A stretch of DNA of 64,000 nt from an uncultured Chloroflexia bacterium. Its GTDB lineage: Bacteria; Chloroflexota; Dehalococcoidia; GIF9; UBA5629. Made by a program: the position numbers and the translations under genes. Below, in pieces: positions 38,231-49,253 of this stretch. Under the pieces are notes generated by a model that was given only the letters and a program-made list of their open reading frames with translations, did no database searches and was not told the DNA's origin. Numbering within the stretch: position 1 is the stretch's first letter; each line of letters begins with the position of its first letter. The DNA is taken from NCBI GenBank assembly GCA_963751585.1, contig CAVVVB010000017.1:110201-174200 (forward strand). Direction: 5' to 3'.

Positions 38231-39625
38231 TTAAGTCGCACCTAACCGAGTCTGTGCTATGTCTTCGAATTTCGCCGTCTTCGCCCTGAACAACAAACGG
38301 ACCTCTCCCGTAGGACCGTTCCGGTGTTTGGCGATAATGATGTCAGCCATATCTTTGGGATAGGGCTCTATCTCGATATCGTGGTCTTTCTTCCATTCAT
38401 CTTCTGTGACATACATTTCGTCACGGGAGATAAAGAGAACCACATCAGCATCTTGCTCAATGCTCCCACTGTCTCTGAGGTCCGACAATTGAGGCTTATG
38501 CGATGAGCGCCATTCTACGGCTCGACTAAGTTGAGAAATGGCCAATACCGGTGCGTCAATTTCACGGGCCAGCGCCTTCAGTGAGCGTGTTATTTCACTT
38601 AGTTCTTGCACGCGACTTTCAATTCTATTGCCTCCCTGTATTAGTTGCAAATAATCCACGATAACCAGATCAACACTCCGTTCGAAATGAAGCCGCCTTG
38701 ATTTACTTCGCATCTCCACTACTCGTAATTGGGGTGAATCATCAATATATATCGGCGCTTCGGAGAGTATGCCACTGGCTTCCATGATCCTTCTTTCCTC
38801 TCTCTCGCCATAAGTACCCAAACGAACACTTCTAGAATCCACGTTGGCCTCGTTGGCCAAAAGACGCTGAACGACCGCCTGTCTGGACATCTCCAAGCTA
38901 AACAGGGCCACACAAGCCTTCTGATTGATAGCCGCATTTCTAGCAATATTTAGAGATAAGCTAGTCTTGCCCGTGCTTGGCCTGGCACCCAGGATAACCA
39001 GGTCGGACCGTTGCAAGCCCCCTAAAATGTCATCTACGGCAGCGAAGCCGGTAAGGATATGCGGAATTTCCTCTCCGGGGAGTGATGGTTGCCCGGTTTC
39101 TTCAAAATACTGACCGAGAATCTGGCGAATAGGCACAAAATCCTGACGGCTCTGCCGCTGTCTTACCTTGAAAAGAATATCCTCTGCTTTGCTCAAAGCA
39201 ACATCAACCTCAGTATCAGATTCATAGCCAAGAGCGTTAATCTGGCTGCCTGCACTTATAAGTCGTCGCATCACAGCCGCCCTCGAGACAATTTGCGCAA
39301 AATGTTCAATGTGTAGAGAGGTCGGCACCATAGACACAAGATGGCTCAAATAGGCAGCCCCGCCGATCTCTTCCAGTTTATCTCTCTGCGCCAACTCATG
39401 GGCTACAGTAATCTGATTTATCCCGACATTGCGTTGATACAGGCTAAAACAAGCATCATAGACGGATTGATTTTCAGGTATAAAGAAGTCCTCTGGCCTC
39501 AGAAACGTGGCAATCTTGAACATGCTCTCGCTATCAATCAGCAAAGAGCCAAGCACCGCTTTTTCAGCTTCAATATCATGCGGCGGTAGATTCTCACTAA
39601 CCAATTTTAGCCGCCTCTTCCTCAA
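38231..39625 (-). CDS. dnaB: Replicative DNA helicase (true start probably near 39604)
   Basis: [53 protein letters not shown]. Confidence 0.96.
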
Positions 39626-40055
39626 TGATTACTTTGATCTTAGCTTCCGCTCCCATGCCCAGGTTAATCACTAAATCGTAAGTACCAAGATTATGGAAAG
39701 GCTCCTCCATCTCAACTCTCTTTTTGTCGATCTCAAAACCTGTGAGCCGAGAAATCTCGCCGGCTACGTTAGCCGCGGTAATGGCGCCATGAAGGCGGCC
39801 TTTGGCTCCTACTTTAACCTTAAAATGCAGTTCTTTGCCCTCCATCTCCTTAGCCATGCTATTCAGCTCATCAAGCTGGCGGCTTTCGTGCTCTGATTTC
39901 TCCGCCGACAGCACTTCTGCCGCCTTTGTAGCTGAAGGCGTTGCGGGTAGGGCCAGGCCTTTAGGAATAAGAAAGTTCCTGGCATAACCGTTCGCAACTT
40001 CCCTTATCTCTCCCCTCTTACCTTTCGATACATCTTGCAGAAAAATGACCTTCAC
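39597..40055 (-). CDS. rplI: 50S ribosomal protein L9
   Basis: [22 protein letters not shown]. Confidence 0.96.
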
Positions 40056-40252
40056 TCTATACCTCCTTTTCTGGGCTCAGAATTGGCAAAACAACTTCAT
40101 AGCATCAAAATGCACTTAATCTCGGTGTTATTTTATAATTTTCTCCGCAGTTTGCCCAGCATAACCGGAGTCCTAGGATGCCAATTTTCAAAAAATCACT
40201 CGCCAGCTAACAGCTACTGCTTAGAATATCCACAGACATACACCTGGGATGA

Positions 40253-41443
40253 TTAGACTAGAAATTCCTCTTTAACCATGGCCAAAGCTTCTGGCTCACT
40301 TAGAAGGTCGACTACGGTCATAGCCATGGCCTTAGCCGAATCTAGCAACCCTTGATGTCCTGACTTTGATGCAGCGGCTAAAGCAAAGTCTGCTGAATGC
40401 AACAGCGCATTCGGCGGAGCGATGGCAATGGTAGGATGAATAGCAGGTATAATCTGGCTGACATTGCCCATATCGGTGCTGCCAAAACCGAAGCGAGGCT
40501 CAAAAAGTTCTACCTTTCGGCCCAAGGATTCCAGGTTCTGAGCAAACAGCTTGGCCAAGGCTGCATTATTCTTCATCGGGGCGTAAACTTCACCCCATCT
40601 ATGTTCCAATCTGGCACCCGTAGCCATCGCTGCTCCCCGGAAACAGTTCAAAACTCTCTCCCTTAATTCATCAAGATAGTTATTTCCCATCGCACGAACC
40701 AAAAATGAACCGGAGCAATGGTCCGGTACAATATTGGCCGCCTCGCCACCAGCCGTAATTATGCCATGAATCCGCGATGTGTCTTTTACATGCTGACGCA
40801 GTGAATTTACACCGTTGAACGCCAAAATCATAGCCTCGAGCGCATTTATTCCCTGCTCTGGAAAAGCGGCTGCGTGCGCGGCTTTGCCGAAGAACTCGAT
40901 GTCGAGCGTAACACAAGCCAGCGCCTCGGTAATCACCGAATCTCTTACCCCCGGATGGATCATCATAGCCACATCAACCCCCTCAAAAGCTCCGTCTCTC
41001 AGCATGATCGCCTTCCCGCCATAAAGCTCTTCTGCCGGTGTACCGAAAACGGCAACAGTCCCGCCACAATGTTCAACAACGTATTTGGTAGCCACCGCCG
41101 CCCCTACTGCGGAGGTGGCAATTATGTTGTGCCCGCAGGCATGCCCAATTTCAGGCAGGGCATCGTATTCAGCCAGCAGAGCGATTACAGGCTTGCCATT
41201 GCCGTATGCAGCTTTGAAAGCGGTAGGCAAATCGGCAAGGTTTTTCTGCAAACGAAAGCCACTTCCTGAGAGATAATCTGCCAACCATCCGGCCGCCTTC
41301 TCCTCCTTAAAACCAAGTTCGGGATTAGCATGGATCTTAAGGCTTAATTCGGAGAGTTTGTGGCTGTCCTGATCTACTTGCCTGATTACCGCCGCTTTCA
41401 GTTCCGCCCTTGTCAAAACCTTGTTTGTCACGTTTTGAGCCAC
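40253..41443 (-). CDS. M20-family amidohydrolase
   Basis: IHANPELGFKE, EYDALP..GHACGHN, GTPAEE, GSTDMGNVS. Confidence 0.92.
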   Translation of the reverse strand: MAQNVTNKVLTRAELKAAVIRQVDQDSHKLSELSLKIHANPELGFKEEKAAGWLADYLSGSGFRLQKNLADLPTAFKAAYGNGKPVIALLAEYDALPEIGHACGHNIIATSAVGAAVATKYVVEHCGGTVAVFGTPAEELYGGKAIMLRDGAFEGVDVAMMIHPGVRDSVITEALACVTLDIEFFGKAAHAAAFPEQGINALEAMILAFNGVNSLRQHVKDTSRIHGIITAGGEAANIVPDHCSGSFLVRAMGNNYLDELRERVLNCFRGAAMATGARLEHRWGEVYAPMKNNAALAKLFAQNLESLGRKVELFEPRFGFGSTDMGNVSQIIPAIHPTIAIAPPNALLHSADFALAAASKSGHQGLLDSAKAMAMTVVDLLSEPEALAMVKEEFLV

Positions 41444-41543
41444 CCCAACAATTAGCCATTATACTCCAAGACTCCGGTATGTTCTACTTACATTTTCACT
41501 AACTTGGAATGAGTTTGCCCTGGCAACCGCAATCGCAATCAGC

Positions 41544-41572
41544 TTGACTTTAAAAATATCTCAACCTATAAT
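41544..41572 (+). promoter_or_regulatory. Sigma70 promoter of the DUF177-rpmF operon
   Basis: TTGACT-17 nt-TATAAT. Confidence 0.75.
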
Positions 41573-41587
41573 GAACTAAATCTGCAA

Positions 41588-42106
41588 ATGGTAATAGACA
41601 GAATGCGTATCAATGTTGCCCAATTGCTCAAAGAACCGATAGGATCGAGTCGCACCTATCAAATAGAGGAGAGCCTTGACACGGAGGATGTAAGCTCCGT
41701 GAAGGGCGAGGTAAAGCTTGTTCGTACGGATCGCGGCATTATGGTAAGCGGCATTATGTCAGCCCATGTTAGGGGAATCTGCAGCCGCTGTCTCAAAGCT
41801 ATTGACTACCAAGTGAAGTATGATTTTGCGGAGGAGTCTCTGCCAAGTACAGGCATTTCGGAGGGCTTAGCTTCGCCTGATCAGCCTTGTTACATTGCTA
41901 TTGACGATAGTCAAGAAATAGACTTGAGCGAAGTCGTATACCAATACGCCTTGCTGAGTATACCCGCCAAGCCACTTTGCGACCAGGACTGTGCCGGAAT
42001 CTGTCCCAACTGCGGACTCGATCTAAATCAGGGCACCTGTCAATGTTCATCCGAAGCATACGATGAGCGCTGGTCAAAATTGATCCGTTTAGGGAAGGAG
42101 CGTTAA
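41588..42106 (+). CDS. DUF177/YceD family protein
   Basis: CSRCL, PAKPLCDQDCAGICPNCG, DERWSKL; upstream of rpmF. Confidence 0.92.
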   Translation: MVIDRMRINVAQLLKEPIGSSRTYQIEESLDTEDVSSVKGEVKLVRTDRGIMVSGIMSAHVRGICSRCLKAIDYQVKYDFAEESLPSTGISEGLASPDQPCYIAIDDSQEIDLSEVVYQYALLSIPAKPLCDQDCAGICPNCGLDLNQGTCQCSSEAYDERWSKLIRLGKER

Positions 42107-42113
42107 CTCAAAA

Positions 42114-42332
42114 ATGGCGTTGCCAAAGAAGAAATATCCAAAATCAAGGCAAGGCAAAAGGCGTAGTCATCTAGCTCTTGCCATTCCCAAATTGGTTGAT
42201 TGCCCTCAGTGCCACACTCCCAAATTGCCCCACCATGCTTGTCCTACGTGCGGCACTTATGCAGGCAGAGAGGTCATTGAGGTTAAGACCCCTAAGAAGC
42301 CTGGCCAAGGATCAGGTGGCCCCAGAACATAG
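42114..42332 (+). CDS. rpmF: 50S ribosomal protein L32
   Basis: ALPKKK..RRSH..CPQC..PHHACPTCGTY. Confidence 0.95.
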   Translation: MALPKKKYPKSRQGKRRSHLALAIPKLVDCPQCHTPKLPHHACPTCGTYAGREVIEVKTPKKPGQGSGGPRT

Positions 42333-42410
42333 CGTCTACCTTCAATGGGTGGGCAAATAACCTAATAGAACAGTCAACGCGAGCGTAGATTTGAACTAGA
42401 AGGAGGTGAT

Positions 42411-43355
42411 ATGGTCGAGGCAGTAAAAGTTGCTTACGTCTTTCCCGGTCAGGGATCATGTTCGGTAGGGATGGGGTTAGAGCTTTATGTCCATTACGCT
42501 TCGGCGAGGGAGGTTTTCGACGAAGTTGACAAGATTCTTGGCTTTTCTCTCTCGCGCTTATGCTTCGAGGGCCCGCAAGAAGATTTAAGACAAACCGTCA
42601 ATGTCCAGCCCGCGGTTTTGGCTACAAGCGTAGCCAGTCTACGAGCTGCTCAAGAGGTCAGCAAAGATGGCGCACCGGTACCTACTCTCGTTGCTGGACA
42701 TGACATGGGTACATACAGTGCGCTGGTAGCCGCTGACGCGCTGAGTTTGTCCGACGCAATACGTCTGATTCGCGAAAGAGGACGATTGATGAACGAAGCC
42801 GGGCAAAGAACGAGCGGCGGCATGGTATCTATGACGGGGTTAGATATTGAAGTCGTTAAGAACCTTTGCTTTACCACAGGTACCGAGATTGCCTATATTG
42901 ATGCCCCGGACCAGGTCACTATCAGTGGCTCACAAGAAAATTTGAACAAGGCCAGAAGATTAGCCCAGATAAAGGGCGCCCGCCGTGCTCTGCCCCTGAA
43001 GGTGAGCGGGCCCTTCAATTCCACACTAATGGAACCGGCCATAGCCAGGTTGAGAAATGCGATATCGGAATTCACATTCAACAAGCCGTCCGTCCCAATT
43101 GTAGCTAATGTTACCGCCCAACCTCTGACAGATCTGGAAGCGATAAAGGAGGAGCTAGTCAGTCAGCTAGTTCGCCCCGTTCAATGGCAGCAGTCCATTG
43201 AGACAATGATCGGCAGGGGTGTAACCACCTTCTTTGAACTGGGCCCCGGTGAAGCACTGACCAAACTGATCAAGCGAATCAGCCCCGGAGCTCAGACATT
43301 TAACATCAACAACGTCCAGACCGTAAATGAAATAATGTCATGGCGCAGGGGGTGA
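42411..43355 (+). CDS. FabD-like (malonyl-CoA:ACP transacylase fold) protein with substituted catalytic residues
   Basis: FPGQGS, QPAV, RGRLM, QVTISG, PVQW, ELGPG identify the fold; GHS is GHD and FHS is FNS. Confidence 0.88.
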   Translation: MVEAVKVAYVFPGQGSCSVGMGLELYVHYASAREVFDEVDKILGFSLSRLCFEGPQEDLRQTVNVQPAVLATSVASLRAAQEVSKDGAPVPTLVAGHDMGTYSALVAADALSLSDAIRLIRERGRLMNEAGQRTSGGMVSMTGLDIEVVKNLCFTTGTEIAYIDAPDQVTISGSQENLNKARRLAQIKGARRALPLKVSGPFNSTLMEPAIARLRNAISEFTFNKPSVPIVANVTAQPLTDLEAIKEELVSQLVRPVQWQQSIETMIGRGVTTFFELGPGEALTKLIKRISPGAQTFNINNVQTVNEIMSWRRG

Positions 43356-43571
43356 TAACGCGCCAAACTGTAAATGCGGTGGCTGCACTTAATAAGAGCT
43401 TAAGTTCCGCGTCATAGCCATCTGAACATAGCTCTCTTTGAATACCACCGCCAACCATAACTATTGTGGCAAAAAGCTGCTCTCGCTGCCACGGCACCCG
43501 CCCTAAATCAGCCTAGAATATTGGTGTGCCCAAGAGCACTTAGGAATATCCGCTAAGTTAGGAACTGGTAA

Positions 43572-43988
43572 ATGGTGACTGGACTCAGGCGAAAAGCAAG
43601 AATCGTAGCTCTGCAGACACTGTATGAGCTTGACTGTTCCACTCACAAGCCAGGGGAAGTCTTGGCTCGCCAATCGAAAAAGGCAGCTCTGCCTCATGAG
43701 GTTGCCGAGTTTGCCGAAAGTTTAGTCAATGGAATACTTGCTAACAAGAAGGATATCGATGATGTCATTCGAAAATTCGCACCAGCCTTCCCCGTCGAAC
43801 AAATAACCGCCATAGATAGAAATATTCTCCGCCTTGCCATTTTTGAGCTTTTATTCGATAATAGAGTTCCTGTCAAAGCAGCAATTAACGAAGCCGTTGA
43901 ATTGGCTAAGAGTTTTGGTAGTGACACCTCTCAAAAGTTTGTCAACGGCGTTCTAGGCTCAGTGGTTACTAACCGTACGAAAGTGTAA
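43572..43988 (+). CDS. nusB: Transcription antitermination factor NusB
   Basis: RRKAR..ALQTLY, IDRNILRLA, INEAVELAKSFG, FVNGVLG. Confidence 0.96.
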   Translation: MVTGLRRKARIVALQTLYELDCSTHKPGEVLARQSKKAALPHEVAEFAESLVNGILANKKDIDDVIRKFAPAFPVEQITAIDRNILRLAIFELLFDNRVPVKAAINEAVELAKSFGSDTSQKFVNGVLGSVVTNRTKV

Positions 43989-44040
43989 ACTAAAGGATGG
44001 CCGAGTAAACTTGTATAGCTTGTATAACTAGAGCAAAAGA

Positions 44041-44298
44041 ATGGGACGAATCTCCGATAAACTCAGAAAAGTCATCGCAGAACAGCTAGGTGTTGACGAG
44101 AAATTGATAGTACCGTCGGCGTCTTTTATCGATGACCTGAACACCGACCCCTCCGATTTGGCCGAACTAATCACCACCATAGAACAGGAATTCAGCAGGC
44201 CGGGGCGAAAGCTGGAAATACAAGATGAAGATATTGAAAAAATCATTACCGTTCAGGACCTCATTGATTGCCTAGGAGATTACGACATAGAGGATTAG
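44041..44298 (+). CDS. Acyl carrier protein-like, DSL motif replaced by DPS
   Basis: VIAEQLGV..SFIDDLNTDPSDLAEL..EQEF..IQDEDIEKIITVQD; acidic 85 aa. Confidence 0.85.
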   Translation: MGRISDKLRKVIAEQLGVDEKLIVPSASFIDDLNTDPSDLAELITTIEQEFSRPGRKLEIQDEDIEKIITVQDLIDCLGDYDIED

Positions 44299-44330
44299 AC
44301 AGCCACTAATCCTGTCTGGCTTGAAAACAG

Positions 44331-44358
44331 AAAGGGCCCCGGTATATAGGGGCCCTTT
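44331..44358. terminator. Bidirectional intrinsic terminator between convergent genes
   Basis: aaagggcccc-ggtatata-ggggcccttt, 10-bp stem with A/T flanks. Confidence 0.8.
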
Positions 44359-44377
44359 TGACATATGCAAAACTGCA

Positions 44378-45631
44378 CTACTTCGCTACAAATGTATCAT
44401 ATGGAATGGGAGAGTCGAAATTGGTGTCCAGTACGCCGTCTTTGTACTCGGAAGTCCAACCGCCACGGAGGGTGAGACGATTGATTCCTATCTGCGGTTT
44501 CCCTACCCAATAGCTATCAATTCCCCATATTCCTTTCCAGTGGAAATTGGCAAAGCCCTCCATCCAGGCGGTAGAGTCCATGGCGTTCTGGGTATTGAGA
44601 AATTCGAAGAAAGCCTTAGGAATGTCATAGCACTGCATCAGCAATGAAGCGGGGACCTCATTGTACTTCTGCTTGGCCCTGTTGTACACATCACGGTAAG
44701 TTTGGCTGGCCATAGGACTGTCGGGATTCACATCGAGGTTAACGATCTTATTCAGAGACTGCTTAGGCACCACTTCCTCCATCACACCGGGCGGGGGATT
44801 GCCAGGCATAATGATCAGACCTTTGAACCCTGCTTCCCGCAGTTGCTTTATCAAAAGTGCACACAGAGCTCCCATGGAGCCAGGCGTGGAGGAGGTATCA
44901 ATAATATCGGCATTTTTTGGCAGTACACGCGTAATTATCGGCTGAAAGTCCGTAGTGGTAGACGGGAACTTCTCCACACCTATCCATTCGAGACCGTATT
45001 TAGGCAGTGATTTTTGAGCAGCGTCGGTAAAAATTGGCAGATCAGGCAAATCGGGGCCCATAGAGAGCACCGTTTTGGCGTCCGGGTAGAATTTCTGCAC
45101 GTAGGCAGCTAAGTCAGTGTACAGTTCCTCAAACGGGGGAGCAAAAAAGAAACTGTATGGTTTGTTCGGACCGGTCATGGTGGGATACAAAGGCAGCAAG
45201 AGAAACGAAATCACCTTGTTGGGTTCAGTTACGGTCTGTGCACCCAGCGCATCGGCGACGAAAGGCCCGCCGATCACCTTCACATGACTGTTAAATATCA
45301 GGTCCTCAGCCTGACTTTTGCCAACTATAAGATCCATCTTGCTGTCACGGATAATTGGATTCAGCGTGTACTTTTGCCCACCGATAGTGACCCCACCAGC
45401 CTCATTTTGAACATCAATGGCCAGCAGTATCCCATTTTGCATCTCGGTGCCAATGAATGCCGACGGACCGGTCAATGGGGTGATAATGCCAATGTCCAGC
45501 GTCTTGGGCGGCGCTGCAGCAGGGGCAGGTGCTGGAGCTGGAGCAGTAGACGGCTGAGCACATCCAGCGAGAACCAGCCCAACAATAAACAACATCCCAA
45601 GTATTACCGATAAACCTCTCTTCACTTTCAT
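44378..45631 (-). CDS. ABC transporter substrate-binding lipoprotein (branched-chain amino acid type)
   Basis: LAGC lipobox, PA linker, IGIITPLTG, NEAGGV.IGG, TTDFQP. Confidence 0.88.
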   Translation of the reverse strand: MKVKRGLSVILGMLFIVGLVLAGCAQPSTAPAPAPAPAAAPPKTLDIGIITPLTGPSAFIGTEMQNGILLAIDVQNEAGGVTIGGQKYTLNPIIRDSKMDLIVGKSQAEDLIFNSHVKVIGGPFVADALGAQTVTEPNKVISFLLLPLYPTMTGPNKPYSFFFAPPFEELYTDLAAYVQKFYPDAKTVLSMGPDLPDLPIFTDAAQKSLPKYGLEWIGVEKFPSTTTDFQPIITRVLPKNADIIDTSSTPGSMGALCALLIKQLREAGFKGLIIMPGNPPPGVMEEVVPKQSLNKIVNLDVNPDSPMASQTYRDVYNRAKQKYNEVPASLLMQCYDIPKAFFEFLNTQNAMDSTAWMEGFANFHWKGIWGIDSYWVGKPQIGINRLTLRGGWTSEYKDGVLDTNFDSPIPYDTFVAK

Positions 45632-45779
45632 AGCTCTCCTTTCATAACAAGTTGAATCTTAAAATAATTATGCCGGTGAACTTGCCATCAATATGTATCT
45701 GAAACTCGATCTTCCTACCTCCATTTCGTAAATATATTCAGCACACCGTGCAAAGACGGTTCATTCAGGGGCTTTTGCA

Positions 45780-45808
45780 AATCTATAACACCGCCCGCCG
45801 TTTGTCAA
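45780..45808 (-). promoter_or_regulatory. Putative sigma70 promoter for the substrate-binding protein gene
   Basis: TTGACA-17 nt-TAGATT. Confidence 0.5.
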
Positions 45809-45812
45809 GTAT

Positions 45813-48800
45813 TCAGGCTCCGGCCTTAAATGCGGTGCTTGCCGCAGCCTTTTGAAGTACATCCTTAAGCACTTCCGGCCAATTGCTGCCCACAACCTTC
45901 GTGTCCAGCTTCATTTGTGCGCTGCCCACCTTTATCCCGTGGCCAAAATCTTTCGATAACGATGCTCTGTTAGACTCCGCTGTGCTGTTGAAGTTCAAAA
46001 TTATCTTACTATCCTCTGTGGAAATAGATTCAACCATGGCTGCTGCAGCCAACTGTTTGATTTCCACTACGTACAAAAGATTCTTGACTGGCTCGGGCAA
46101 AGGTCCGAATCTATCATTCATTTCCTCGGCTACGTCGTCTATTTCTTGAATTCGTTTTATCGCCACCAATCGTTGATATAAATTCAATCTCGTGCTCAGG
46201 TCGGAAATATATTCTTCCGGGATGTAGGCAGCCAGAGACAATACGATAGTGGGGACCAGGTGTTGACTTTCCTTTTCAGGTGCCCGAACACTCGGTTTCC
46301 CTTTGGCCTCATCCACCGCTTCAGCCAAAAGCTGGCAATAAAGATCAAAACCGACGGCAGCTACATAGCCGCTTTGTTCCACCCCCAACAAATTTCCAGC
46401 CCCCCGGATTTCCAGGTCCTTCATAGCGACAGCAAATCCGGCGCCAAGCTCCGTAGCCTCCGCAATGATCTTGAGGCGCTTTCGAGCCTCTTCAGTAAGC
46501 TGCTTCCTTTTGTCAAAAGAGAAGTAAGCGTGTGCATGGCTTGTACCACGTCCCACGCGGCCACGTAGCTGATAAAGCTGCGTCAGCCCAAACTTATCAG
46601 CTTGATCAACAATAAGTGTATTGACGTTAGGTATATCAAGACCGGACTCGATTATAGTAGTAGTAACCAGGACATCGCTCTTATGGTTAATGAACTCGGT
46701 CATCACTCTCTCCAGCTCATGCTCAGGCATCCGACCATGCGCCACGGATATTCTGGCTTCGGGAACGAGGCTGCTTAACCTATGGGCAACCATGGCAATA
46801 TTGTAGACCCGGTTATGAACGAAAAACACCTGGCCGTTTCGCTCAAGCTCATGCAATATGACCTCTCGAACCAGGGTTTCGTCGTAGCCACCAACGTGAG
46901 TCCTTATCGGCAAACGCTCCTCCGGCGGAGTTTCGATGGTGCTCAAATCCCTGATGCCGGCTAACGACATGTGAAGAGTACGCGGAATGGGAGTGGCGCT
47001 TAACGTCAGTACATCTACCTCCCGCCTCAGCTTCTTAAGATGTTCTTTGTGCACTACTCCAAAACGTTGTTCCTCATCTATTATGACAAGCCCCAGATCC
47101 TTAAACACAACATCCTTCTGCAGTAGACGATGCGTACCGATACAAATATCTACAGCGCCTGATGCCAGGCCACCCAGCGTCTCCGCCTGCTCCTTTTCTG
47201 TGCAGAAGCGGCTCAACATCTCGACTCTTACCGGAAACGCCTGGAGCCTTTCGCGAAATGTATCAAAGTGCTGCTGTGCTAGTACCGTCGTCGGCACCAG
47301 CAAGGCCACCTGTTTGCCACCCATAACCGCCTTGAATGCGGCTCGAAGCGCCACCTCCGTTTTACCATAACCGACATCTCCGCAAACGAGGCGGTCCATA
47401 GGCTTTGGCTTCTCCATATCATTTTTAACCGCATTAACGGCCTCTAACTGGTCGGGCGTTTCCACATAGGGAAAAGAAGACTCCATCTCCTGCTGCCACA
47501 AACTATCTGGGGAGAAAGCAAAACCCTGAATTAACTCTCTCGACGCGTAGAGCTCCAGCATCTCTTTGGCGATAATAGCCACCGATTCCTTGATTCTCTG
47601 TTTGGTACGTTCCCATTCTTGTGTTCCCAGCCGACTCAAGGTGGGCGGTTGATCACTTGAGCCAACATAGCGACTAATACGGTCCACCTGATCGACTGGC
47701 ACATAAAGCCGGTCACCGGCGGAATACTCAAGAAGGACGTATTCGCGGTCAACCCCGTCCTTGAAGATCCTGGTCAGACCCACAAACCTGGCAATACCGT
47801 GGTCAATGTGAACAATATAGTCTCCCGGCGTCAATTCGGAAACGAACCAGTGGTAACGTATTGGGTTCTTTCTGGCCAACCGTCTTTTTTTCACGAAGCC
47901 AAATATTTCGCTATCGGTAACCAGCGTGAGGACATCTTTGATATACCAACCTTCAGACAGGGACCCCAGAACTAAAGTAGCTGATTTCAACGGTGGCACT
48001 TCCTCAATTTGCTGAACCGAACCGGCCACTATATCTTGATCTTGAAGAAGCTCCATAAGACGATTTGTTTGCTGGCTAACAACAACTACGCGACGATCTT
48101 GTTGCAGCATTTCTCTAAGCCCGTTGGCAAAAGTGTCAAGCCTGCCTCCATAGCTTGGCACCGGCCCAAAAGTCAAAACTTGACGTGGCTCATTATCTGA
48201 GTCACCTGTATCCCAAGCACAGAGTGCCAAATGGCGTCTCATACCGTTGATCTTTGCGGCAAACTCTGGCCAGGATAGGATCGAAGAATCCGATATCGGC
48301 TCGCCCCGCTCCGACAAAGCCTGATGAAACTCCTCAGCTTCACAATTCAGTTTGTCTATTGCAGTCTTGAGTTCATCGAGGCTATCTGTTATCAGCAGCG
48401 TATCGTCAGGCAGGTAATCCATGATGTTGTCAGTGCTCAGAGATCGTCTGCTCTCACTGGCTGGCGCTATGCTTACAGAGGACACCAATCTCAGAGAACG
48501 TTGCGTCTTCGGATCAAAAAGCCTGATGCTTTCCACCTGATTGCCCAGGAATTCTATCCTAGCGGGGAACTCACTATCCGGAGAAAAGACATCAATAATC
48601 CCGCCACGGCGGCTCATCGCTCCCGGCACTTCAACAATATTTTCGTATTCGTACCCGATCCCCTGCCATTTCTCTATGAGCTGTAACGGGTCAACATTCA
48701 TGCCGACTTTCAACAGATCGCAGGACGCGGCAAATTCGTCTCGAGACATTTTTTTGCTTACTGAAGCTAACGCAGAACTCACTATCAGAGCGCTTCGCCT

Positions 48801-49253
48801 TTCTCCTGACGTATTACTACAAAGGGCCAGGGTCGAAAGCGTTCGCAGTCTGTCCACCTTAGTAGCCGCATCAGGTGAAGAATATTCGTCGGCCAGGAAA
48901 TCACTTTCGGGAAAGGATTGCAACCAGGTCTCACTGGGGCACCAAACCTGAAGCTCGTCACAGAGCTTCTTGGCATTTTCCGGTTGAGCAGTTATCACCA
49001 AAATGGGTAAGTTTAACGCTTCATGAAGAGCGGCAATGACAAATGATTTAGCGGCATCGGATATGATCAATTTGACACCACCAGCTCGTGGCTCAAGCAG
49101 CTTGGCCTTTAGCTCCCCGTACCCCGGAATGTGTTCAATTAAGGGCAAAAGGCGAGACAAATTCATCACAAACACCTGTAAGGCTAGCCGTAAATGAGGG
49201 ATACTGCGGACTAGCCCTGGCTCAATTCTAGCATGAGCCCATTTGTCCCACAA
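45813..49253 (-). CDS. mfd: Transcription-repair coupling factor (true start probably near 49166)
   Basis: [62 protein letters not shown]. Confidence 0.97.

Follow-up and report, generated by a model that had tools for sequence, protein, structure and literature searches.

A 64,000-nucleotide stretch of DNA from an uncultured Chloroflexia bacterium of the Dehalococcoidia (assembly GCA_963751585.1, contig CAVVVB010000017.1, positions 110,201 to 174,200; hereafter the window) encodes homologues of two proteins of fatty acid synthesis, FabD and the acyl carrier protein (ACP), in which the residues expected to perform the chemistry have been replaced. The two genes are found among five plus-strand genes arranged head to tail, yceD-rpmF-fabD*-(216 nucleotides)-nusB-acp*, where FabD* and ACP* are the names used here for the window's FabD and ACP homologues and for their Ser-less orthologues. 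The same layout had been given in an earlier reading of this DNA (the original prediction, in which yceD appears under its family name, DUF177); it proved to be correct, and all five families were confirmed with Pfam and NCBIfam. As read from the sequences, FabD* and ACP* descend from the ancestral fabD and acpP genes and form a conserved, catalytically dead pair. The features of the locus are as follows.

41544..41572, plus strand: promoter-like site TTGACT-17-TATAAT (consensus scan, 11 of 12 matches; a pattern match only)
41588..42106, plus strand: yceD, first gene of the putative operon, DUF177 (23S rRNA accumulation protein) family (PF02620, 91.9 bits)
42114..42332, plus strand: rpmF, ribosomal protein L32 (TIGR01031, 80.9 bits vs. 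a cut-off of 22.6; also PF01783)
42411..43355, plus strand: FabD*, a full-length FabD homologue of 314 amino acids (PF00698, TIGR00128)
43356..43571, no strand: 216-nucleotide spacer in which no gene is recognisable; an outgroup has fabG here, and 15 of 52 FabD* loci have a radical-SAM gene
43572..43988, plus strand: nusB, transcription antitermination factor (TIGR01951, 135 bits vs. a cut-off of 88.35; also PF01029)
44041..44298, plus strand: ACP*, an ACP homologue of 85 amino acids (PF00550, NF002148)
44331..44358, no strand assigned (the scan reports the minus strand): G+C-rich hairpin AAAGGGCCCC...GGGGCCCTTT after acp*, a pattern match only

Loss of the catalytic residues

FabD* scores above the TIGR00128 cut-off (299.4 vs. 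260.9 bits, over residues 6-291), matches PF00698 with 119.9 bits, and aligns to E. coli FabD with an E-value of 2e-62. In an ungapped alignment with solved FabDs, including 1mla, the nucleophile motif GHSLGEY has become GHDMGTY, with Asp in place of Ser at residue 98, and the segment VSVPSHCALM has become VSGPFNSTLM, with Asn in place of the catalytic His at residue 203. The original prediction that FabD* is full length yet devoid of its nucleophile Ser and catalytic His is thereby upheld. A third motif, GQGSQ, reads GQGSC in the window's protein. The Arg of RERGRLM is retained, as are the basic patches RR191-192 and K288. The Ser, His and Arg in question correspond to Ser92, His201 and Arg117 of the E. 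coli enzyme; R123 of FabD* is presumably the counterpart of the malonyl-binding Arg, and residues 191-192 and 288 part of the ACP-docking patch.

ACP* is likewise a recognizable member of its family, above the cut-offs of NF002148 (76.1 vs. 71 bits) and PF00550 (33.8 vs. 20.8) and below that of TIGR00517 (60.2 vs. 70.45). Alignments to solved ACPs show that DLGADSLD has been converted to DLNTDPSD, such that the DSL signature reads DPS and, as had been proposed, the acyl-carrying Ser is gone. ACP* is strongly acidic, with a median net charge of -15, and it bears a five-residue insert, RPGRK, after helix II. In order-level relatives, the catalytically intact ACPs linked to nusB (e.g., L069:6286-6525 and L113:2583-2837) already have a partly basic insert of the same length (consensus STPxRK), and the insert therefore predates loss of the Ser.

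Similar replacements are widespread in public databases. The best 120 matches to FabD* are 69-100% identical to it, derive from metagenome bins of Chloroflexota/Dehalococcoidia, and are nearly all 314 residues long; 114 of them lack the Ser, having Asp (87) or Gly (27) in its place. The best 120 matches to ACP* are nearly all of 85 residues, and 119 have no Ser at the carrier position. Read errors were considered as a source of the substitutions and rejected, because changes of the same kind occur in those 114 and 119 matches. Moreover, two public sequencing runs of one sample yielded contigs that are 95-99% alike and span both genes, and codons 98 and 203 of FabD* and 37-38 of ACP* are unchanged among the differences listed (six more exist). 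Database entries of this kind are annotated as "ACP S-malonyltransferase" and "acyl carrier protein", and metabolic reconstructions may thus be wrongly crediting these organisms with parts of the pathway.

The collection comprised 36 loci of species-representative genomes and 77 further regions of an order-level sample, and 87 loci were scanned at the rpmF/nusB position, giving 83 distinct FabD sequences. FabD is Ser-less in 52 of the 83 and intact in 31. Downstream of nusB in the 52 FabD* loci, the ACP has no Ser in 49, has Ser without the adjoining Leu in one, and is hidden by contig ends in two; the 31 intact-FabD loci have ACPs with DSL (13), with DS but not L (6), or without Ser (1), and in the other 11 an ACP was not found within the fetched stretch. 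Loss of the two Ser residues, whose co-variation in relatives the original prediction had put forward as a check, coincides in 49 of the 50 FabD* loci with a visible ACP. Gene order is equally constant: L32 lies directly upstream of FabD* in 49 of 49 loci with room for it, NusB and then ACP lie downstream in 50 of 50, and yceD precedes L32 in relatives' loci as well. Median gaps are 82 nucleotides from L32 to FabD*, 67 from FabD* to NusB (where no radical-SAM gene intervenes), and 72 from NusB to ACP*.

Comparison of 41 distinct FabD* sequences identified 91 invariant columns of 314, including Q14, R123, Q252, R192 and K288, with residue 191 always R or K. When these 41 were set as a group beside 49 intact FabDs, the pocket positions G15, Q17, S98, L99 and H203, invariant in the latter, were all found to have changed. 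Of 51 FabD* sequences that could be scored, 49 have E or D at residue 15, and 50 have gained an acidic residue at 15 or 98. The window's own FabD* differs from those 49 in retaining Gly15 (GQGSCS), and its end branch (0.14) is longer than those of its genus mates. In 40 distinct ACP* orthologues, the former Ser position is occupied by P (32), A (6) or G (2) and the next position mostly by S (17), D (10), P (6) or E (3), such that Ser is conserved neither at nor beside the carrier site.

These patterns bear on whether FabD* may have gained a new catalytic activity, e.g., with the Asp serving as nucleophile or base and ACP* as a non-covalent partner or substrate. Asp does sit on the nucleophile elbow in 25 of 52 FabD* loci, and the fold and the pocket residues Q14, R123 and Q252 have been retained. 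Gly is found at the same position in the other 27 loci, however, and the former His may be N, Y, H or S; the nucleophile/His combinations are D/N (18), G/Y (15), G/H (12), D/Y (6) and D/S (1). With Asp and Gly switching at one position and four residues at the other, the family as a whole conserves no substitute catalytic set, and a new catalysis is regarded as quite improbable.

Purifying selection and origin of the pair

Both genes are evolving under marked constraint. Ratios of nonsynonymous to synonymous substitution rates (dN/dS) were calculated pairwise by the NG86 method for pairs with 0.05 < dS < 1.5, with the following results.

FabD*: 0.068 (89 pairs)
FabD*, only genomes without ketoacyl synthase: 0.067 (34 pairs)
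ACP*: 0.102 (127 pairs)
ACP*, only genomes without ketoacyl synthase: 0.119 (46 pairs)
NusB: 0.099
L32: 0.077
YceD: 0.186
intact FabDs of order relatives: 0.126 (38 pairs)
second-copy FabDs: 0.126 (8 pairs)

For the window's own FabD* against its nearest relatives the ratio is ~0.058, at a dS near saturation. Together with the co-occurrence in 49 of 50 loci, the values for FabD* and ACP* strongly support the original prediction of a non-catalytic pair that has been retained. Homology, loss of catalytic residues, and purifying selection, the properties by which pseudoenzymes are recognized, thus all appear to be combined in the pair.

It is scarcely credible that FabD* and ACP* are redundant paralogues decaying neutrally beside a working pathway. 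Such an account could appeal to the working second FabD and additional ACPs of this genome, described below, and to the variability of the pocket positions among orthologues. Against it, dN/dS ratios of 0.07 and 0.10 are equal to or below those of L32, NusB and intact FabDs, lengths have held steady at 314 and 85 residues in nearly all of the best 120 matches, 91 of 314 columns are invariant among the 41 FabD* sequences, and the pair has been kept in 32 genomes that have no remaining pathway.

The origin of the pair can be followed through living intermediates. Order-level relatives possess yceD-rpmF-fabD-nusB-acp with an intact FabD and with an ACP that has both DSL and the five-residue insert, and one outgroup has fabG between fabD and nusB; the ancestral operon of this Dehalococcoidia order is yceD-rpmF-fabD-(fabG)-nusB-acpP. 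Six genomes of the window's own family encode AcpS-FabK-FabD(intact)-nusB-ACP, in which the ACP has the Ser but not the Leu, and one genome (L060/L099) combines an intact FabD with a Ser-less ACP and has a canonical ACP directly after rpmF. The intermediates show that the nusB-linked ACP, already carrying the insert, first lost the Leu of DSL and then the Ser, and that the neighbouring FabD subsequently lost its Ser, its His, and the glycine of GQGSQ. They also show that these losses arose in lineages with a second, canonical set, ACP-FabF-AcpS-FabK-FabD, and that many descendants later shed this set and the whole of type II fatty acid synthesis while keeping the dead pair.

A quick maximum-likelihood tree of 90 FabDs is in keeping with this history. 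The locus copies fall into a single clade of 50 (SH-aLRT 98), within which are a Ser-less clade of 40 (support 93) and a separate Ser-less lineage, L097, such that the FabD Ser has been lost at least twice; L097 is a second lineage in which both genes have changed. The FabD of L076 reads GHSLGQY and keeps its Ser. Second-copy FabDs, including that of the present genome, fall outside the locus clade and are an older paralogue or a product of transfer rather than a recent duplicate. FabD* sequences with Gly are basal and those with Asp derived, a pattern that would fit a Ser codon (AGY) having become Gly and then Asp through one-base changes.

It is conceivable that the two proteins work separately, with ACP* an adaptor for some other machine and FabD* in an unrelated role. 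ACP decay did begin first, as the six intact-FabD genomes with a DS-not-L ACP and the one with a Ser-less ACP attest, and nusB and acp are adjacent across the order regardless of the state of FabD. A Ser-less mitochondrial ACP of Plasmodium, considered below, provides a precedent (PMC8547962). Nonetheless, each of the 50 FabD* loci long enough to show both genes has the two together, and both genes changed again in L097. The residues of the presumed ACP-docking patch are also conserved in FabD*, and separate roles are considered improbable.

Fatty acid synthesis in this genome and its relatives

The original prediction had proposed that type II fatty acid synthesis was abandoned, and it had noted that the locus contains neither plsX nor fabG. 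Both genes are indeed absent from the locus, but both are present elsewhere in the genome, the assembly of which comprises 28 contigs at 94.6% completeness and 3.99% contamination. A cluster on contig C16 encodes ACP(DSL)-FabF-AcpS-FabK-FabD-FabF, in which the second FabD is intact (GHSLGEY and AFHS), is 57% identical to FabD*, and is accompanied by a FabK that exceeds its cut-off (462.5 vs. 453.1). A series on contig C13 comprises a MaoC/HadB-like pair, PlsX, ACP(DSL), FabL (352.7 vs. 328), FabF, FabG (325.8 vs. 297.75), DegV and Dak2, and on contig C27 a PlsX-ACP(DSL) pair lies next to a second AcpS. In total, the genome possesses four genes of the phosphopantetheine-binding (PP-binding) family, three of them with DSL, three FabF-type synthases, two AcpS (PF01648), three PlsX and six PlsY. 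No match to the FabZ/FabA family was found in this genome, and FabH was detected only below its cut-off (23.6 vs. 26.6 bits). The two adjacent small hotdog-fold genes that head the PlsX-ACP-FabL-FabF-FabG-DegV-Dak2 cluster (C13:85542-86368) match MaoC and FAS1_DH_region and are HadB-like; this MaoC-type pair could supply the dehydratase step in place of the missing FabZ. Binning contamination was considered as a source of C16 and C13 and rejected, as both contigs are large and their GC content and tetranucleotide profile match those of the genome.

Abandonment of the pathway therefore does not hold for this genome, given the intact FabD, DSL ACPs, FabF, FabG, FabK, FabL and AcpS on other contigs. 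The scenario, in which the pair would be a remnant of a pathway given up here, draws on the rpmF locus without plsX, fabH or fabG, on the missing FabZ/FabA and sub-cut-off FabH, and on the loss of the pathway in many relatives. Set against the intact FabD, FabK, two FabF, AcpS and ACP of C16, the MaoC/HadB-like pair, PlsX, ACP, FabL, FabF, FabG, DegV and Dak2 of C13, and the genome-like composition of both contigs, it is very improbable.

Among relatives the same proposal fares differently. In a sample of 58 genomes of the family, a ketoacyl synthase (threshold E <= 1e-25) was not found in 33 and a phosphopantetheinyl transferase (PF01648) was not found in 30; 29 genomes lack both, eight of which are 96-99% complete (G006, G035, G001, G010, G013, G019, G021 and G033). 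In most of the 29, ACP* is the sole PP-binding match. FabD* is present in its usual synteny in 32 of the 33 synthase-less genomes, and ACP* in the 31 whose contig reaches that far; the exception, G119 (76% complete), carries an intact FabD next to AcpS-FabK where its contig ends. A ketoacyl synthase is present in each of the 24 other genomes whose FabD is intact. Within the window's own genus, five of 11 genomes have kept the pathway, this one included. Loss of type II fatty acid synthesis, as claimed for the lineage, is thus refuted for the present genome and supported for many of its relatives.

How such relatives obtain their lipids is suggested by other genes. Whether or not they have the pathway, 15 of 15 high-quality genomes tested have several copies of DegV (2-12 genes) and PlsY (4-10 genes), and this multiplicity would fit uptake of outside fatty acids via fatty acid kinase and PlsY. 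The present genome has 12 matches to DegV, the family of the fatty-acid-kinase binding subunit, and six PlsY. An archaeal-type lipid route, raised as an alternative in the original prediction, finds no credible GGGP synthase among the 15 genomes searched: PcrB/GGGP synthase was matched in none of 14 relatives, and in this genome only by a marginal partial match (25.9 bits, 47 profile positions). A carboxyltransferase family is represented in 57 of the 58 genomes by several types. PlsX, an acyl-ACP:phosphate transacylase, has been retained in same-genus genomes that have no ketoacyl synthase, intact FabD, phosphopantetheinyl transferase or any ACP but the Ser-less one, and it occurs near DegV and PlsY genes (C2:215914-216873 in G006 and C3:121189-122145 in G035; C11:29178-30176 in the present genome, which has the pathway). 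A Dehalococcoidia family that is widespread in wetlands and sediments appears to depend largely on outside fatty acids.

Proposed function and other features of the locus

As the pair is under selection in genomes without the pathway, its function requires neither acyl transfer nor a phosphopantetheine arm and is almost certainly non-catalytic. The reading favored here, and considered on balance to be probable, is that FabD* and ACP* constitute a non-catalytic module that is maintained by selection and does not depend on fatty acid synthesis. In such a module, ACP* would act as an acidic adaptor protein and FabD* as its docking scaffold, with the basic patch and the pocket Arg kept; the new acidic side chain at residue 15 or 98 could occupy this Arg much as a malonyl carboxylate does. 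The module would be made from one transcript with yceD, rpmF and nusB and would act on ribosome or rRNA biogenesis. Co-transcription from yceD to acp* is suggested by the short gaps between genes, the promoter-like site before yceD (one of six in the region, vs. 3.9 expected by the consensus scan), and the hairpin after acp*, likely a two-way terminator. Shared transcription with yceD, rpmF and nusB would in turn point to ribosome or rRNA biogenesis, and this particular link, taken alone, is put forward tentatively, as a possibility on the unlikely side.

Several points weigh against the favored reading. Loss of activity has been read from residues, and binding of FabD* to ACP*, or of either to other partners, is a prediction. 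The median isoelectric point of FabD* (5.90 vs. 5.65-5.92 for intact FabDs) reveals none of the basic shift that might be expected of an RNA-binding protein. The transitions of the FabD Ser are few (at least two on the tree), too few for a statistical test of co-variation. The absences of synthase and transferase rest on metagenome-assembled genomes, albeit with eight at 96-99% completeness and a pattern repeated in 29. Finally, in many bacteria the placement of fab genes beside rpmF is ancestral, and it is therefore not independent evidence for a ribosomal role. A prediction of the FabD* + ACP* complex from purpose-built alignments scored 0.01 vs. a mark of 0.32, which counts neither for nor against binding.

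Known systems provide partial parallels. FabD* and ACP* are clearly homologous to the canonical FabD (malonyl-CoA:ACP transacylase, TIGR00128) and AcpP of the yceD-rpmF-plsX-fabHDG-acpP cluster, share their position beside yceD-rpmF, and have intact versions at the same locus in outgroup genomes. They differ from these in that FabD* has no Ser, His, or GQGSQ glycine/glutamine and ACP* no phosphopantetheine Ser, and in that the dead pair has been kept where condensing enzymes and a phosphopantetheinyl transferase are missing. The mitochondrial ACP of Plasmodium falciparum is also Ser-less and is essential without type II fatty acid synthesis, and thus represents an ACP without phosphopantetheine kept after loss of the pathway in a role other than acyl carriage (PMC8547962). 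There, however, it is an organelle protein of a eukaryote with the Isd11-Nfs1 (cysteine desulfurase) complex as its partner (PMC8547962). The present bacteria are free-living; their ACP* has a dead FabD as its companion and is encoded alongside rpmF and nusB.

Two further parallels are from mitochondrial ribosomes. Human MCAT, a protein of FabD fold, is an assembly factor of the mitoribosomal small subunit (PMC9892005; PDB 8csp and others) and in that capacity functions outside fatty acid synthesis, binding a ribosomal subunit rather than catalysing. It is still described as the enzyme of fatty acid synthesis, unlike FabD*, which has lost its catalytic residues and for which a ribosomal role would be an extrapolation. 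In the MALSU1-L0R8F8-mtACP module, which sits on the mitoribosomal large subunit, mitochondrial ACP (mtACP) is a structural subunit of a ribosome-bound assembly (PMC10693566). ACP* would resemble mtACP in this respect. The mtACP of that module is a normal ACP bound through an LYR protein, and no LYR-type partner was found here, no search aimed at one having been made.

It is conceivable, though decidedly unlikely, that FabD and ACP have long had an additional role in the biogenesis of ribosomes or rRNA, and that this role has become visible in the present family. The enzymatic task would have been handed over to a second gene set and later lost entirely in most species, leaving FabD* and ACP* as a pure binding module produced along with L32, YceD and NusB. 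If true, the additional role would be one reason why fab genes adjoin yceD-rpmF in many bacteria, and the pair would be to bacteria what MCAT and mtACP are to mitochondrial ribosomes.

FabD* could alternatively be a ligand sensor that binds malonyl-CoA, acyl-CoA or CoA without turnover and, with ACP*, controls the metabolism of lipids or acyl phosphates (PlsX, PlsY, fatty acid kinase). The invariance of R123, Q14 and Q252, the 2-12 DegV and 4-10 PlsY copies per genome, and the retention of PlsX in same-genus genomes without a holo-ACP system are all compatible with sensing, as are the carboxyltransferases of 57 of 58 family genomes, which could make malonyl-CoA, although the last do not discriminate between readings and, being of several types, are at most candidate acetyl-CoA carboxylases. 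The acidic residues gained at 15 and 98 would be expected to repel a malonyl carboxylate or take its place, however, and the pair is unlinked to plsX, plsY or degV in every locus examined. A sensor is accordingly rated as unlikely.

Pseudoenzymes, Ser-less ACPs and a moonlighting FabD homologue are each already known. In the titles and abstract beginnings that were searched, no description was found of a bacterial, paired, selected dead FabD and dead ACP that have outlived their pathway, and a literature search produced no paper linking "pseudoenzyme" with FabD. The non-catalytic module favored here would amount to a natural separation-of-function, in which two core proteins of fatty acid synthesis have been stripped of their chemistry and kept by selection in free-living bacteria, and it could allow a non-enzymatic role of FabD and ACP to be studied free of interference from lipid synthesis.

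As for the remaining features of the locus, the radical-SAM gene (PF04055) that separates FabD* from nusB at 15 of the 52 FabD* loci is absent from the window. At L035:5019-6170, as at the 14 other loci, it encodes a Cys-rich protein of 383 residues, whose best NCBIfam match is of the AmmeMemoRadiSam type and below threshold. A search for remnant genes in the window's spacer (43356-43571) returned only a weak resemblance to the N-terminus of the radical-SAM protein (7 of 11 residues, E 0.13). Rfam has no match to the spacer, and a scan of 41300-44500 gave one chance-level snoRNA match; spacers of close relatives produced no convincing alignment.

The flanks of the locus, in which genes were named from translations alone, without a family search, look ordinary. 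On the minus strand at 38231-41443 are a DnaB-like helicase, ribosomal protein L9, and an open reading frame (ORF) resembling M20-type amidohydrolases, and at 44378-49253, also on the minus strand, are one ORF resembling solute-binding proteins and another, 1146 residues long, resembling Mfd. The L9 and M20-like genes are syntenic in relatives.

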